From a virus: a DNA stretch of 18,188 nucleotides. The stretch is taken from the IMG/VR virus record IMGVR_UViG_3300045988_030933, positions 1 through 18,188 of that record; one strand, given 5' to 3'. The notes beneath the pieces were generated by a model, which saw nothing but the letters and a program-made list of their open reading frames with translations, had not been told where the DNA came from and made no database searches. Of this stretch, positions 1 to 18,188 are shown one piece after another (position 1 is the stretch's first letter; every line of letters starts with the position of its first letter). A program made the translations under genes and the position numbers.

Positions 1-77
1 TCGTATCTGTTCCTTTTGCCTTATGAAACGGATGACGGTTTGCTTCTGTTTCCTGCTGAGGATATGGAAGCGTTTGC
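1..77. repeat. Left inverted terminal repeat (ITR-L), 77 bp perfect
   Basis: nt 1-77 equal the reverse complement of nt 18112-18188, compared base by base. After a 1-nt indel, cgga matches again. A second conserved block at about 100-140 mirrors about 18055-18095. Confidence 0.97.
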
Positions 78-105
78 TCGGACGTGGTAATGATAAAGCC
101 CCTAG

Positions 106-134
106 GTTTATTACCTAGGGGCTTATTTTATGCT
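106..134 (-). terminator. Left subterminal hairpin, probable terminator of the leftward operon
   Basis: AAGCCCCTAGG-tttatta-CCTAGGGGCTT forms an 11-bp perfect stem ending 6 nt past the endolysin stop. On the minus strand the tail is UUAUCAUU (weak U-tract); on the plus strand it is ATTTTAT. A near-copy sits at the right end. Confidence 0.6.
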
Positions 135-12233: not shown

Positions 12234-12268
12234 GCAAGCTCCTATCTATCGGCAATGTTTTCACCAAA

Positions 12269-12277
12269 ATTATATCA
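12269..12277 (-). promoter_or_regulatory. Late promoter, extended -10 (TGATATAAT)
   Basis: The minus strand reads TGATATAAT immediately after the terminator U-tract. It sits about 36 nt upstream of the scaffold ATG. Confidence 0.6.
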
Positions 12278-12288
12278 TGTGACGGGAG

Positions 12289-12319
12289 AAATAAAATGAC
12301 CCTCCAATCACGGAGGGTC
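12289..12319 (-). terminator. Intrinsic terminator ending the early/replication transcription unit
   Basis: On the minus strand GACCCTCC-gtgatt-GGAGGGTC forms an 8-bp GC-rich perfect stem. It is followed by ATTTTATTT. Confidence 0.8.
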
Positions 12320-12456
12320 TGAATCGTCCTATCAGAGCGCAAAAGTGATGATCGTAGGGCACTACCGCCACGATAGCGATTCCATGGTTGGCGGCATTCT
12401 CAGCCGTGGCAGTCCATCCTATGTTGCTCCCAGTCGAAAATCGACGCTCACAAGAC
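12290..12456 (-). ncRNA. Candidate structured small RNA, possible prohead/packaging RNA (pRNA) analogue
   Basis: It has its own extended -10 (12471-12463) and its own terminator (12319-12289). A 12-bp closing helix forms between 12456-12445 and 12339-12326. An internal 8-bp helix pairs 12412-12405 with 12372-12365, and further small hairpins are present. It has the same position relative to the TP and DNAP genes as the phi29 pRNA. The only ORF here (65 aa) is rich in rare-looking ATA/GGA/CGA codons and reads through the terminator and the late promoter. Confidence 0.4.
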
Positions 12457-12462
12457 ATAACT

Positions 12463-12471
12463 ATCATAGCA
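12463..12471 (-). promoter_or_regulatory. Extended -10 promoter (TGCTATGAT) for the candidate small RNA
   Basis: The minus strand reads TGCTATGAT and overlaps the DNAP stop codon. The predicted +1 at about 12456 coincides with the first base of the closing helix. Confidence 0.45.
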
Positions 12472-13915
12472 TAACCATTGTCCCGTAATCGTCCTTGACT
12501 TGCACGCCATGATGGAATTGCTCATACGGGATAGGTTGGGAGAACATGTTTCCGGACATGCAAATATCAACGTCCCCATCATCCTTCCACCCTTGATATC
12601 TATTCATTCCGAGTATGGTCAGTTTTTCGTATCGGGCTGCGATCTTCCATTTGCCCAATTCGGTAGGGTGGATTTCGCATGAGTCCACCGGCTCCCAGCC
12701 GGATAGGATGCACCCGTCCGTGTTCGCATATAAGAGCCGGTCGGAGTTCGCGTGACAGACGGTCATAAGCTTTTTTCTTGCGTAGGCATTCACCCATACG
12801 GGCACGGGGAGAAAATCGGTTTTCAGATTCGATTCCTCTCTCTGTGCGATATCCCAGTCCAAGGTGATACCGTCTTGAGATAAGGGGAGCATGACGGCAC
12901 CTTTGGGTAGACTCGCCATTTTTCCCACAAGCGCATTCATGACAAGTTTTGCCACTTGCCGTTTCTCTCCTGTAGCATTCTGTTTCAGCTCCCCCCATTC
13001 ATCGACAAACGAGCGGAAAAACCCCTTGCTTTGCCGGAATTTCCACCCCATAACATGCCTGTATACGCTCACTTCGTAATTTTCATGGAGCAGTTTTTGG
13101 TCAATGTCTGTCAATACTCTTGTAATATACCCCCTTGTGCTGGTGAGTCGATTGAGTTCATACACGCTACGATTATCTAACAGAAAGGGGTATCCGTTTG
13201 GTTTGAGTTCCGCACGAAACGTAAGTTCATCGCAATGCAACGGCATATCATCATCCTGCTCATACGCACCGTCGTAAGGTTCAGGTAGCCCCCATGGCAA
13301 CCATTCGTCTCGCAATATGCTCGGATACATCGAGTTGCAGTCAACGTCAATGGCCTTACCGTATGCCCCCTCTTTAGCAACCATAAAGCCGCCAACATAA
13401 GCGTCATGCAATGACTTTTTCGTGTCCGATTCGAGTTGCGGGAATTTGTCGTAATACCACTTCCACTCGCCGGACACAAACGCCTCCATACTCGCCCCAC
13501 CGGCTGTGATCTTGCACAGGCCGCGCCGATCGTACTCGCGCAAAATGTTGAGCAGTTGAGTATCAGTCATGGTAAGCTTGCAGTTTTCGCGCAGCAGATT
13601 CGATATGTCGAAAAAGCGTGCGGAATTCTCGCGGTCGATACGGACGGTAAAACTAAAAAATTTGCCCTTTTTGGATACTATCGCGTCCCAGCTCAAATTC
13701 GAATTGTGTTCGCTGTGGGGCAGAGAGTGTACGACATGCGCTATAAACGGGTCAAGTAGATCGGGGTTGGTCATGTAGACGGTGAGTTTGCCGCCCGCCA
13801 TGATGGACGCCAAAAGACGATTGGGTTGGATGACGTCACGCAGCACGGTGCCGTCCGTGCAGCGTATGACGTTATCCATACACCATAATCCAACTCTATT
13901 GTCGCTCACCGTCAT
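12464..13915 (-). CDS. Protein-primed family-B DNA polymerase (phi29 gp2-like), unusually short and divergent
   Basis: 483 aa. AYVGGF plus DVDCNSMYPS corresponds to motif A, KLVMNALVGK to motif B and LLYANTDGCILSG to motif C. GLCKITAGGASMEAF aligns with phi29 GLDRMTAGSDSLKGF. A TPR2-like segment is present before VWVNAYAR. RBS is AAGGGAAG. Confidence 0.9.
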   Translation of the reverse strand: MTVSDNRVGLWCMDNVIRCTDGTVLRDVIQPNRLLASIMAGGKLTVYMTNPDLLDPFIAHVVHSLPHSEHNSNLSWDAIVSKKGKFFSFTVRIDRENSARFFDISNLLRENCKLTMTDTQLLNILREYDRRGLCKITAGGASMEAFVSGEWKWYYDKFPQLESDTKKSLHDAYVGGFMVAKEGAYGKAIDVDCNSMYPSILRDEWLPWGLPEPYDGAYEQDDDMPLHCDELTFRAELKPNGYPFLLDNRSVYELNRLTSTRGYITRVLTDIDQKLLHENYEVSVYRHVMGWKFRQSKGFFRSFVDEWGELKQNATGEKRQVAKLVMNALVGKMASLPKGAVMLPLSQDGITLDWDIAQREESNLKTDFLPVPVWVNAYARKKLMTVCHANSDRLLYANTDGCILSGWEPVDSCEIHPTELGKWKIAARYEKLTILGMNRYQGWKDDGDVDICMSGNMFSQPIPYEQFHHGVQVKDDYGTMVML

Positions 13916-13949: not shown

Positions 13950-15008
13950 CTACTTTTCCAGTGCGCCCGCCTCCGCTATCCACCGGTCAAATTGCCGTCT
14001 TGAGCGCTGATAGCCCTCACTGTTGCCCTTGAAAATCGACGTGAAGCCGTGTCGAACGGGGTCATACACCGTCCAGTCGAAAACAATACGCGGGGCATCG
14101 GTCTGTTCGATAAAAGCGCGTTTCTGCGCAGCGGATAGGCTGCGGAACCGTTTAAGGCGTTTCGAACCAAGTGAGGTGGCCAAGATTTTTTCGAACACTT
14201 CATAACGTCCGCGACTCATATAGGACGGCCACTCGTGCTCGCCGTACAGGTCTTTACTCTTTTTGCCCGTCCCCTGTTTTTTGGACTTGCGTTTCCGTTC
14301 GGTGCGCAATCCTAATATTTCGGCTGCGTCATGCATTTGCTCAAGCAACTCGTTACGCCGTCCGCTCTCCAATTGGGAACGCACAAACGCTTCGTCGCTC
14401 AATACGTTGGTCATCTGCAAAAAATCAGTGAGTTTTGACGGAATGATCTGATTACGTCCGAAACCCTCTCCGGTGGTACCGGTGATTTCAGATACACGCT
14501 GCTCGTACACGCTGCGTTTCGGCATGGCCTGTTCGCGGTTCCATTCGTTGATTTTGCGTCGTGCCGCATTGATTTTCCGCTGCTGCTGCCGTAAGAGTTT
14601 ACGTCGTTTCGCCACGGGTTCCGCTTCGATCTGCGCGTTCGTGATGGGCGTGCGTTGGGCGAACATAATGTCTTTTTTCGTCGGCTTTTCCGCGGCGGTG
14701 GCATGGTATGGTGTGTTTTTCGCTGCCGCTATGGTCTGTTTTTTCTGCCGCTCCCACTCTTTGCCTAAGGTTTTCGCGATATTGACTAGTTGCTTGTCGG
14801 CGGTTTTTGCGAGATTCGTGTGAGAGTATGTGCCAAGTTTGCTAATGTTGCGGGCGGCACGTGCTTCCGCAGCCTGTCTTGCCTTGACGTGCTTGCGTGC
14901 CTTGCTGTCCGCTTTGATGGCTACCGTGCCAATACCGGTGTTGTTGGCGTGAGGGGTGTAGTGTTGACTTGCGACTGCTCGGGATGATTTTCTTTGCTTT
15001 CGTGACAT
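13950..15008 (-). CDS. Putative terminal protein (TP)
   Basis: 352 aa and very basic (MSRKQRKSSR..., KRRKLLRQQQRKINAARRKI, RKRKSKKQGTGKKSK). It lies immediately upstream of the DNAP, as in phi29 gene 3-gene 2. The genome has ITRs. No direct sequence match to phi29 TP was recognised by eye. Confidence 0.6.
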   Translation of the reverse strand: MSRKQRKSSRAVASQHYTPHANNTGIGTVAIKADSKARKHVKARQAAEARAARNISKLGTYSHTNLAKTADKQLVNIAKTLGKEWERQKKQTIAAAKNTPYHATAAEKPTKKDIMFAQRTPITNAQIEAEPVAKRRKLLRQQQRKINAARRKINEWNREQAMPKRSVYEQRVSEITGTTGEGFGRNQIIPSKLTDFLQMTNVLSDEAFVRSQLESGRRNELLEQMHDAAEILGLRTERKRKSKKQGTGKKSKDLYGEHEWPSYMSRGRYEVFEKILATSLGSKRLKRFRSLSAAQKRAFIEQTDAPRIVFDWTVYDPVRHGFTSIFKGNSEGYQRSRRQFDRWIAEAGALEK

Positions 15009-15087: not shown

Positions 15088-15525
15088 TCACTTGGTTTTC
15101 TCTTCGTCCACCGGCTCAATGCTGAAAAACTTGAAGCCACGGCGGGAACGACGTTCCACCACCTTGATAGCAAGCGGTGCCTCCCAAGTGTTCGGCGTTC
15201 CAAAAATGCCGAACATGGTATTCAATCCAGCTGCGAGAGTGGGGGAGGTGGCCGCATACGCCTTATTGTCGTCGGTTACGATGATGACGCGCACGGTATT
15301 GGAGATTTCGCCCGTCTGATCATCCGTCACCTGTACGGCCTGGGCGACGGCATTCACCATGTTCAACGTTTCGTTCAAATGTTCATCCAGCTTTTCGGCG
15401 TTCTGAAGCGCAGAGTAGAGTTTGATCTTACCTTCGCGGGTGGAAGTGTCGATGAAGTGCTGGACGGTGCCGAGTTCGGTGGACTCGGTGTTGAATGCGA
15501 CAAGTGCGGTGTTGGTGTTTTCCAT
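15088..15525 (-). CDS. Putative single-stranded DNA-binding protein
   Basis: 145 aa. The pattern ...VQVTDDQTGEISNTVRVIIVTDDNKAYAATSPTLAAGLNTMFGIFGTPNTWEAPLAIKVVERRSRRGFKFFSIE resembles the lactococcal-phage type SSB family as I recall it. Its position just upstream of TP and DNAP fits a replication module. RBS is AAGGGAAGG. Confidence 0.45.
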   Translation of the reverse strand: MENTNTALVAFNTESTELGTVQHFIDTSTREGKIKLYSALQNAEKLDEHLNETLNMVNAVAQAVQVTDDQTGEISNTVRVIIVTDDNKAYAATSPTLAAGLNTMFGIFGTPNTWEAPLAIKVVERRSRRGFKFFSIEPVDEEKTK

Positions 15526-15584: not shown

Positions 15585-15593
15585 TTTTATATC
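15585..15593 (-). promoter_or_regulatory. Extended -10 promoter (TGATATAAA) upstream of the SSB-like gene
   Basis: The minus strand reads TGATATAAA and overlaps the stop of the 104-aa ORF. It is intergenic and AT-rich. Confidence 0.45.
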
Positions 15594-15906
15594 ACATGCC
15601 GTCATTATTTTCAATTTCGGCATGTCGTTTTGTATGCTCTTCGGGATTCCATTCTTGCGGCTCACCAAAAGTCGCATACTTATAAAAAGTCTCCTCATTC
15701 ATAGAGACTTTTTGCGAAAAAACGTGAATAGAGCGCGGAATGAAATTAGGAAACAGTTTCTTCGCGCGAATCGAATATGCGCGCGCGTCCTTAAGTCGCC
15801 CGTCGATGACATGCTCGGCTTCCATGAAATCGCCGTCAACAAGTTCCATGCCCTTGAGCACGGCATAGACGCGCGTGCGAAAAATATCGGTTTTGGTTCT
15901 AGCCAT
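15592..15906 (-). CDS. Hypothetical early protein (104 aa)
   Basis: The ORF-track ATG at 15912 is only 2 nt from GGGAGG. The second ATG at 15906 (MARTKTDIF...) has proper spacing. No recognisable domain. Confidence 0.65.
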   Translation of the reverse strand: MARTKTDIFRTRVYAVLKGMELVDGDFMEAEHVIDGRLKDARAYSIRAKKLFPNFIPRSIHVFSQKVSMNEETFYKYATFGEPQEWNPEEHTKRHAEIENNDGM

Positions 15907-15911
15907 ATGCA

Positions 15912-16430
15912 TTACCTCCCTTGTAGTAAGATTTTTTGCAATTCATCATCATTATACCGTGTCGTGTCCAGTCTGTCAAAATTTTTAAACACTGCAATAA
16001 TGAGATTTTGAGCTTGTGGACTATCAAAGATCGTGCAGCAATCATATGACGTGCACCCTTTGACAGCGCAGACGGCACACCATGCAATCAGATTAGGCGG
16101 GTTGATGGTACCGTCCAAGTATTCCACATCATACGTGCGTGACAGGGCGGCGGAAAAACCGTCCGATATGGTCATGTTCCCGCAAATCTGCGATACGACA
16201 ATTATTGCTTGCGTAAACCATGTGCTAGCCCCGTCGCGCCACAGTTCACATAGCATGTTCACGGCACGGCAGCATGTTTCAAAATCCCCATGCCCCATGT
16301 CATAGCGTTTCAGATTCAGCTCGCGTTTCCGGCCTTTCGTAGCCTTGACAATACGAGGCGATTCCATGATCGCATCATCAAATTTCCTCATGCGATAGAT
16401 CGGGATCCGGTCATTGCCACGGTTAAACAT
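15912..16430 (-). CDS. Hypothetical Cys-rich early protein (172 aa from MFNRGND)
   Basis: The open frame extends to 16472, but the ATG at 16430 has a GAAAGG RBS and only an 8-nt overlap with the upstream small ORF. Cys clusters are CCRAVNMLC and WCAVCAVKGCTSYDCC. No domain recognised. Confidence 0.6.
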   Translation of the reverse strand: MFNRGNDRIPIYRMRKFDDAIMESPRIVKATKGRKRELNLKRYDMGHGDFETCCRAVNMLCELWRDGASTWFTQAIIVVSQICGNMTISDGFSAALSRTYDVEYLDGTINPPNLIAWCAVCAVKGCTSYDCCTIFDSPQAQNLIIAVFKNFDRLDTTRYNDDELQKILLQGR

Positions 16431-18023: not shown

Positions 18024-18068
18024 TAAACGAAATTACGACACGCCGTAAAACAAAACAACATAAAAAGC

Positions 18069-18089
18069 CCCTAGGCAATAAACCTAGGG
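18069..18089. other. Right subterminal hairpin, mirror copy of the left one
   Basis: CCCTAGG-caataaa-CCTAGGG forms a 7-bp stem. Read inward from the end it is followed by GCTTTTTATG, as at the left end (GCTTATTTTATG). Confidence 0.7.
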
Positions 18090-18111
18090 ACTTTACTTTA
18101 CGCATTTTCCG

Positions 18112-18188
18112 GCAAACGCTTCCATATCCTCAGCAGGAAACAGAAGCAAACCGTCATCCGTTTCATAAGGCAAAAGGAACAGATACGA
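18112..18188. repeat. Right inverted terminal repeat (ITR-R), 77 bp perfect
   Basis: Exact reverse complement of nt 1-77. Confidence 0.97.

Follow-up and report, generated by a model that had tools for sequence, protein, structure and literature searches.

Phi29-type polymerases are the textbook single-subunit replicases that join protein priming, processivity, strand displacement and proofreading, and are the workhorses of DNA amplification and nanopore sequencing. The stretch analysed here (the window; all 18,188 nucleotides (nt) of IMG/VR record IMGVR_UViG_3300045988_030933) encodes an unusually short polymerase of this type, and the question it raises is whether such an enzyme has dispensed with proofreading while remaining a working replicase. 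An earlier note on this DNA had proposed that the enzyme is a minimal protein-primed replicase in which the proofreading site is degenerate and polymerase motifs are altered, and all of the in silico tests described below support that proposal. On present sequence and model evidence the enzyme is likely an active terminal protein (TP)-primed, strand-displacing polymerase with a non-catalytic exonuclease remnant, and hence would lack intrinsic proofreading.

The open reading frame (ORF) at 12464..13915 lies on the minus strand, with its ATG at 13915 and its stop codon at 12464-12466. The earlier note had taken these coordinates without a strand, which is corrected here; a plus-strand reading was rejected on account of its many stop codons. 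The length of 483 amino acids (aa) given there agrees with the ATG-to-stop ORF and is 92 aa below that of phi29 DNA polymerase (DNAP). The predicted protein matches PF03175 (E=1.7e-27, 96.9 bits against a cut-off of 25.8) and phrog_1907 (E=1.8e-41), and a phmmer search of PDB sequences aligned residues 127-437 to residues 179-497 of phi29 DNAP (E=9e-41). An AlphaFold2 model built on a 22-sequence alignment had a mean predicted local distance difference test score (pLDDT) of 90.3 and a predicted template modelling (TM) score of 0.88. When this model was searched against PDB with Foldseek the top matches were all nine phi29 polymerase chains (E=2e-40 to 2e-37, TM 0.79-0.82), followed by archaeal PolBs at a TM of about 0.4. 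The closest BFVD model was the polymerase of Bifidobacterium phage BadAztec1 (TM 0.84-0.86, root mean square deviation 2.6), followed by that of GA-1. These data unambiguously identify the ORF as a phi29-type protein-primed family B polymerase (pPolB), in agreement with the identity first proposed.

To place this protein among its relatives, 1608 homologues were recovered from 1.84 billion cluster representatives. The nearest are proteins of 454-496 aa (P0121-P0139), 30-41% identical to the query; the 469-470-aa polymerases of the honeybee-gut phages BadAztec1 and BadAargau2 fall in this group too, and more distant relatives are of 535-625 aa. The 22 short and 114 long sequences were aligned with MAFFT (136 in all, phi29 numbering). 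With the polymerase domain taken by itself, the short proteins form a monophyletic clade. Conservation within the genus was counted in 119 homologues and conservation within the clade in the 22 representatives. Profile-profile comparison was by hhalign, with the N-terminal domain (N-domain) of the clade set against the exonuclease domain of the 114 long pPolBs and with a second profile made from the genus only.

The N-domain is recognizably related to the phi29 exonuclease domain. The clade profile matched the long exonuclease domains with a probability of 98.4% (E=7.5e-15; query 5-145 on phi29 21-197) and the genus-only profile with a probability of 94.8% (query 2-145 on phi29 18-197). The canonical residues D12, E14, D66 and D169 are carried by 96 of the 114 long proteins, and in three others the gene call is simply cut short at the N-terminus. 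The set is absent from all 22 short proteins, in which ExoI, ExoII and ExoIII are neither present nor conserved: the D12 and E14 columns of the MAFFT alignment hold gaps or unrelated residues and the N62 and D66 columns are variable. The ExoIII segment is gapped in every alignment, as one 35-residue gap in two of them and as two gaps totalling 25 residues in the genus-only comparison, and at Y165 all clade members but P0139, which has Pro, show a gap (21 of 22). The only N-domain residue invariant in the clade is N106, which lies in a segment aligned with phi29 119-127; no acidic column is invariant, the best being D21 at 73%. The domain is nevertheless modelled confidently by AlphaFold2 as strand and helix elements. 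The ratio of nonsynonymous to synonymous substitution rates (dN/dS) between the window and Bifidobacterium phage BP1 is 0.084 for N-domain codons 1-126 and 0.092 for the remaining codons. Because of this confident model and the low dN/dS, the N-domain is predicted to be a conserved scaffold without catalytic residues, and not a decaying one.

The route by which the site was lost differs from the one first suggested. All of the strings quoted in the earlier note are present in the protein (D14-N-V16, N50-PDLL-D55, L114-TMT-D118, DCNSMYP at 192-198, KLVMNALVGK at 323-332 and YANTDG at 396-401) and a degenerate exonuclease site is borne out, with no Exo motif in the window protein or the 22 clade representatives. 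The individual equivalences fared less well. ExoI had been placed at D14-N-V16 with loss of the Glu, but C12-M13-D14 is a three-residue genus-specific insertion that is a gap in 17 of the 22 clade members, and the profile alignments start the window protein at phi29 18-21, past the ExoI strand. A D-x-E at the aligned position is found in none of the 22 clade members and V16 is never Glu in the 119 genus sequences; one MAFFT run pairs D5 with phi29 D12, and no alignment yields D-x-E. For ExoII, assigned to N50-PDLLD, N50 does align with phi29 N62 but is variable across the clade (within the genus it is N in 57% and D in 40%), and the position of phi29 D66 is held by L53 or L54 rather than by D55, itself 87% conserved in the genus and N, T or A in the other 13%. 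LTMTD, read as ExoIII with the Tyr lost and Asp118 kept, pairs with phi29 129-135 or 156-160, N-terminal to the ExoIII segment that is deleted or gapped, so this equivalence does not stand. The residue-for-residue substitution that these assignments implied is thus not what is found; the catalytic segments are deleted or truncated.

The polymerase domain presents a different picture, in which the catalytic core is retained and several residues around it are changed. The catalytic carboxylates of phi29 DNAP are D249 and D458, and its pocket for the nascent base pair is formed by Y254 and Y390 (PMC4974454). The equivalents of D249, K383 and D458 are invariant in 136 of 136 aligned sequences, and the clade shows no variation at D192, N194, Y197, K323, T399 and D400. 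At the Y254 position every one of the 22 clade members has Tyr, and 6 of the 114 long relatives have F or H. When the protein was aligned with phi29 and 134 relatives, the motif readings of the earlier note were confirmed, namely a retained motif A (DCNSMYP), the S to A and Y to V changes in motif B (Y390 being V330), and replacement of the first Asp of motif C by Asn (D456 being N398); the TPR2-like segment is likewise retained, and TPR1 is kept as well. Both insertions are characteristic of protein-primed PolBs and could be aligned to those of phi29 with minor gaps, and a hairpin is modelled at 340-358 in TPR2. The list of atypical features was therefore right as regards motifs B and C, but it overlooked the change of K498 to N438 and the loss of 13 residues from the thumb. 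The full consensus (Kx3NSxYG, YxDTDS and KxY) is not matched by KLVMNALVG, YANTDG and NRY, and the changed residues are not metal ligands.

These changes are distributed in the family in a structured way. The Y390 position is non-Tyr in all 22 short proteins and Tyr in 88 of 99 exonuclease-intact relatives (Fisher p=1e-14, uncorrected for phylogeny). At position 456, Asp is present in 114/114 long relatives and Asn in 11/22 clade members; on a neighbour-joining tree made from the polymerase domain, members with Asn occur at four or more distinct points. Lys is found at position 498 in every one of the 114 long relatives, whilst the 11 short proteins with Asn at 456 all have N, G, S or T there; of the 11 with Asp at 456, ten have R or H at 498 and one has Q (co-variation p=3e-5). 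K498 corresponds to K706 of RB69 and K967 of Pol epsilon and contacts the primer strand at n-2; when it is lost, the primer terminus shifts into the exonuclease site (PMC4333401). Efficient polymerization is known from primer-independent PolBs, which lack the first motif C Asp (PMC7544198). Relaxation at Y390, D456 and K498 would be coherent with an enzyme that has no exonuclease site to which a primer terminus could partition. All clade members end at the same point of the thumb, where short strands are modelled at 472-474 and 480-482. Overall, the 92-aa deficit relative to phi29 is made up of approximately 14 aa at the N-terminus, 35 at ExoIII, a 17-aa insert (phi29 505-521) that is peculiar to phi29 and its close relatives and absent from the window polymerase, 13 at the thumb tip and several small indels.

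Loss of the exonuclease site is not confined to the short clade. Approximately 14 of the 114 long representatives (metagenomic proteins of 535-590 aa: P0155, P0164, P0183, P0192, P0219, P0243, P0244, P0248, P0256, P0258, P0262, P0263, P0264 and P0267) also have degenerate ExoI, ExoII and ExoIII. Exonuclease-site decay seems to be recurrent among phi29-like phages, since these degenerate long relatives are spread over at least five separate lineages of the neighbour-joining tree. All three Exo motifs are kept in the cultured gut or actinobacterial phi29-like phages Av-1, Eggerthella LE1-1, Curtobacterium Reje and Hungatella CH17P1, none of them from Bifidobacterium, and in the polymerase of the uncultured faecal contig MT835861.

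Several points weigh against a working enzyme without proofreading. The three alignments place the first approximately 25 residues differently, and D14 (98%) and D118 (99%) are highly conserved within the genus. Loss of 3'-5' exonuclease activity is deduced from missing motifs and is on that basis probable. The RB69 K706A and phi29 K498T substitutions cripple synthesis (PMC4333401), and the sole clue to how N438 might be tolerated is its covariation with N398. Lower fidelity of the replicase is probable but is an indirect prediction.

The conservation of D14 and D118 leads to the first of the rival explanations, in which the N-domain proofreads through a non-canonical site composed of lineage-specific residues (D14, D55, D77, D103 and D118). 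Conservation of several acidic residues does reach 98-100% in the genus, and purifying selection acts on the domain, but conservation at this level is common to most residues of the genus and not to acidic ones in particular. D14 falls in the genus-specific insertion, D55 can be N, T or A, the clade with its shared truncated architecture conserves no acidic position, and the ExoIII helix segment bearing the general-base Tyr and the fourth carboxylate is deleted. Such a site is very unlikely. Proofreading in trans, whether a second phage protein or a host exonuclease at the replication fork of the phage supplied it, is also unlikely. The only plausible phage candidate is a 172-aa early protein (15912..16430, minus strand) with an invariant ExoI-like GD[F/Y]E[T/S] motif, but this protein is modelled by AlphaFold2 as all-helical (pLDDT 69), its best PDB fold match has E=1.9 and it has no Pfam or PHROG match. 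Screening of ten other window ORFs against Pfam and PHROGs revealed no nuclease family, nor does any nuclease appear among the 26 annotated products of BP1. No docking site for a separate proofreader is known on a phi29-style monomeric polymerase engaged in protein-primed strand displacement, which also counts against this explanation.

Alternatively, the changes at Y390, D456 and K498, three (nearly) invariant residues of full-length relatives, might signal a polymerase gene that is decaying or inactive, with the phage replicated by host enzymes. The catalytic Asp, Asp, Lys and Tyr are invariant, however, dN/dS is about 0.09, and the D456N state is stable in lineages that are merely 27-41% identical. 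The length is constant at 482-484 aa over more than 170 homologue clusters, and the gene encodes the only polymerase of cultured lytic phages with inverted-repeat ends. A pseudogene is excluded by the selection signature, the constant length and the cultivation of the phages, and this explanation is exceedingly improbable. The preferred reading thus remains an active polymerase carrying a non-catalytic exonuclease remnant.

Under that reading the polymerase would be the sole replicase of a phi29-like, linear Bifidobacterium podophage with inverted terminal repeats (ITRs). D192 of motif A and D400 of motif C would bind metal, K323 and N327 would bind the incoming dNTP, and Y197 would act as the steric gate. 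In phi29, TPR1, TPR2 and the thumb serve terminal-protein interaction, processivity and strand displacement, and TPR1, TPR2 and the shortened thumb are presumed to be kept here for similar roles. The N-domain would descend from a DEDDy proofreading exonuclease from which the ExoI strand (or its carboxylates), the Asp of ExoII and all of the ExoIII segment have gone, and we infer that, devoid of 3'-5' exonuclease activity, it most likely persists to line the template and strand-displacement tunnel as a structural wall. Residues with which proofreading PolBs check the nascent or primer-terminal base pair and which govern partitioning between polymerase and exonuclease sites would have been relaxed in parallel (Y390 to V, K498 to N), and the non-liganding first Asp of motif C would have been neutralized to Asn along with loss of the basic residue of KxY. 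The net result would be a compact, proofreading-free and probably lower-fidelity replicase, tolerable for an 18-kb genome.

M1 is kept in 118 of 119 genus-level homologues and the Shine-Dalgarno sequence GGGAAG lies 9 nt upstream of the ATG, whilst the M13 position is Met in only 2%. A start at M13, as annotated in BP1, was rejected: most homologues have Ala there, M1 is 99% conserved and the Shine-Dalgarno sequence precedes it. The GenBank polymerase coding sequence (CDS) of BP1 (L001, 13200-14651) accordingly begins 12 codons late, at M13, and that of BD811P2 (L006, 1501-2952) begins 38 codons late, the conserved start equivalent to M1 being a GTG in that phage. On L003 (BadAztec1, approximately 1366-1392) and L004 (approximately 1312-1338) there is an in-frame GTG nine codons upstream of the annotated BadAztec polymerase start; initiation there would extend the protein by VIVYVGGSE, which is strand-like and conserved in both BadAztec1 and BadAargau2. 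Several short-clade members may accordingly have annotated N-termini that are slightly too short.

The genome around the gene is that of a small podophage, and the features described here are collected in Table 1. The window is a complete linear genome whose ends are exact inverted repeats, and it fits the phi29-like small podophages (Salasmaviridae-related; Badaztecvirus and unclassified Bifidobacterium phages), whose linear genomes are of 18-20 kb. It is 88.8% nucleotide-identical to BP1 over 86% of its length and approximately 76% identical to Bifidobacterium dentium phage BD811P2 across about half its length. BP1 is a cultured podovirus of Bifidobacterium pseudocatenulatum (PMC12694917). 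The polymerase is the sole polymerase in these cultured lytic phages with ITR ends. The 352-aa ORF preceding it is a candidate terminal protein from its position and from clade-level homology: BadAztec1 encodes a homologue at the corresponding position (E=2e-16), searches of Pfam and PHROGs gave no match, and similarity to the Av-1 terminal protein is not significant (E=0.09). The order of genes for single-stranded DNA-binding protein (SSB), TP-like protein and polymerase recurs on a metagenomic contig (L009) encoding clade member P0124, the one examined. Downstream of the polymerase are genes with PHROG matches to major head protein, tail, upper collar connector and lower collar/adaptor, and the gene after the connector and collar genes is assigned as the packaging ATPase from collinearity with the BP1 'DNA packaging protein'.

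Table 1. Positions in the window of the polymerase gene, its domains and motifs, and associated genome features
Feature	Position	Strand	Basis and remarks
DNA polymerase gene	12464..13915	minus	483 aa plus stop; ORF list, translation, Pfam, PHROG and phi29 matches
Vestigial exonuclease-like N-terminal domain, aa 1-130	13526..13915	minus	Homology to phi29 exonuclease domain without catalytic residues
Junction D118/T119 of putative 35-residue deletion (phi29 136-170, with ExoIII Y165 and D169)	13559..13564	minus	hhalign gap; MAFFT block map
YxGG motif, Y173-V-G-G176, retained	13388..13399	minus	Y173 and G175 clade-invariant; coordinates checked by translation
Motif A, DCNSMYP	13322..13342	minus	D192 = phi29 catalytic D249; Y197 = steric-gate Y254
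TPR1 insertion, aa 204-298 on phi29 261-358	13022..13306	minus	Nearly gap-free alignment; AlphaFold2 and Foldseek, TM 0.80-0.82 (whole chain)
Motif B, KLVMNALVGK	12920..12949	minus	K323 and N327 kept; phi29 S388 to A, Y390 to V330
TPR2 insertion, aa 338-362 on phi29 398-420, beta-hairpin	12830..12904	minus	Alignment with minor gaps; AlphaFold2 strands 340-345 and 353-358
Motif C, YANTDG	12713..12730	minus	D400 = phi29 catalytic D458; N398 replaces D456
KxY motif, here N438-R439-Y440	12596..12604	minus	Conserved primer-terminus Lys (phi29 K498) lost
Shortened thumb, aa 453-483	12467..12559	minus	Last 13 residues of phi29 thumb hairpin absent
Candidate terminal protein, 352 aa, basic	13950..15008	minus	Immediately upstream of polymerase gene; position as in phi29 and Av-1
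Phi29-type single-stranded DNA-binding protein	15088..15525	minus	PF17427 Phi29_Phage_SSB E=7e-18; phrog_6243 E=1.2e-19
Left terminal inverted repeat, 77 bp exact	1..77		Reverse-complement identity with 18112-18188
Right terminal inverted repeat, 77 bp exact	18112..18188		Reverse complement of 1..77

Some further observations concern the remainder of the genome. Every substantial gene of the window is on the minus strand, with early replication genes at the high-coordinate end followed by structural and lysis genes, an arrangement unlike that of phi29, where early and late blocks are divergently transcribed. Within both ends (window 1-130 and 18059-18188), the exact 77-bp ITR is followed by a hairpin or terminator-like element, a near-identical palindrome at approximately nt 97-125 that reads CCC(C)TAGGTTTATT(A/G)CCTAGGGG and then Ts. 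On the left the BP1 record carries 22 additional bases, and it lacks a matching right end, which makes the true termini uncertain. The 172-aa early protein is found only in this phage genus and has seven invariant Cys residues together with an invariant GD[F/Y]E[T/S]CC; the start of a longer, 186-aa ORF is unused by its homologues. A role for this 'GDFETCC' protein as a DnaQ-like nuclease was rejected given its all-helical model and the lack of a fold or family match. A 106-aa ORF (15592-15912, minus strand) has no Pfam or PHROG match; its BP1 counterpart is labelled 'DNA methyltransferase', a label that is probably wrong, since a methyltransferase would be larger.

The gap of 230 nt that follows the polymerase gene (12234-12463, minus strand) looks like a conserved structured RNA. 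RNAalifold of this gap from three phages gave 72 pairs, 11 of them with compensatory double changes; the minimum free energy z-score is -2.9. The fold comprises an approximately 145-nt multibranch structure, then a GC-rich hairpin and U-run resembling a terminator, then TGATATAAT, which resembles an extended -10 element. Rfam scans of the window, this gap included, gave no match. A 65-aa ORF (12270..12467) overlapping the polymerase stop was rejected, being broken in BD811P2 and BadAztec though the nucleotides are conserved. The RNA could be the counterpart in these phages of the packaging RNA (pRNA).

With regard to novelty, our literature searches found no mention of missing exonuclease motifs in the polymerases of phi29-like phages, and a 2024 review of these phages handles their polymerases as ordinary homologues. 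The gene is already in GenBank as 'DNA polymerase', and an exonuclease-less, remodelled clade appears to be undescribed. A broader proposal, which we advance tentatively and regard as somewhat doubtful, is that Bifidobacterium phi29-like phages and several metagenomic lineages replicate double-stranded DNA (dsDNA) with a naturally proofreading-free, remodelled polymerase, error-prone yet processive and strand-displacing, in which relaxation of the mismatch-sensing Tyr390 and Lys498 is combined with joint neutralization of the Asp456/Lys498 pair. If this were true, these tailed phages would mutate well above other dsDNA phages, predicting high mutation rates in abundant human-gut and bee-gut Bifidobacterium phages, and their polymerase would offer a ready-made compact exonuclease-minus alternative to engineered phi29 polymerase. 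A natural, selected clade in cultured phages that discarded exonuclease catalysis and kept the scaffold would separate the structural from the catalytic roles of the domain. It would also point to the motif C Asp and KxY Lys as a coupled pair whose joint neutralization is tolerated. As BP1 and the BD811P phages are in culture, the predictions for the clade are directly testable.

Comparison with known systems places the window polymerase closest to members of its own clade. It is 93% identical to that of BP1 (gp14), approximately 75% identical to those of BD811P1-3 and approximately 32% identical to those of BadAztec1 and BadAargau2, all of which share the truncated N-domain and thumb and are annotated just as 'DNA polymerase'; the BadAztec enzyme differs in keeping D456 and in having Arg at the K498 position. 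Phi29 DNAP (gp2; PDB 1XHX, 2PYJ and 2EX3) has the same fold (Foldseek E=2e-40, TM 0.80-0.82) and has in common with it motif A, the K and N of motif B, the catalytic Asp of motif C, YxGG, TPR1 and TPR2, as well as a polymerase gene that follows a putative TP gene in an approximately 18-kb linear genome with ITRs. Unlike phi29 DNAP, the window polymerase is 92 aa shorter, lacks ExoI, ExoII and ExoIII, has V at Y390 and N at both D456 and K498, and is without the 505-521 insert and the last 13 thumb residues.

The nearest pPolB precedent found is the exonuclease remnant of mavirus and polinton-like viruses, with Pol alpha, Pol zeta and PolB2 more distant. In the pPolB of the mavirus virophage and polinton-like viruses the exonuclease domain is a remnant or lost and lower fidelity is predicted; these are enzymes of eukaryotic viruses, with a TP-vOTU fusion, in which exonuclease loss accompanies helicase gain (PMC11161782). 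The window polymerase differs in belonging to a tailed bacteriophage with no helicase, in keeping TPR2 for strand displacement and in having a domain that is under selection and modelled as a folded scaffold. The exonuclease fold is kept and its catalytic residues are lost in eukaryotic Pol alpha and Pol zeta and in archaeal PolB2, and PolB2 has one motif C Asp (PMC7544198). These are cellular, RNA- or DNA-primed enzymes with proofreading partners, whereas the window enzyme is its genome's only replicase. For N398, a precedent is provided by piPolB of pipolins, which is efficient without the first motif C Asp (PMC5695915, cited in PMC7544198) but belongs to a different PolB group and, unlike the window polymerase, needs no primer.

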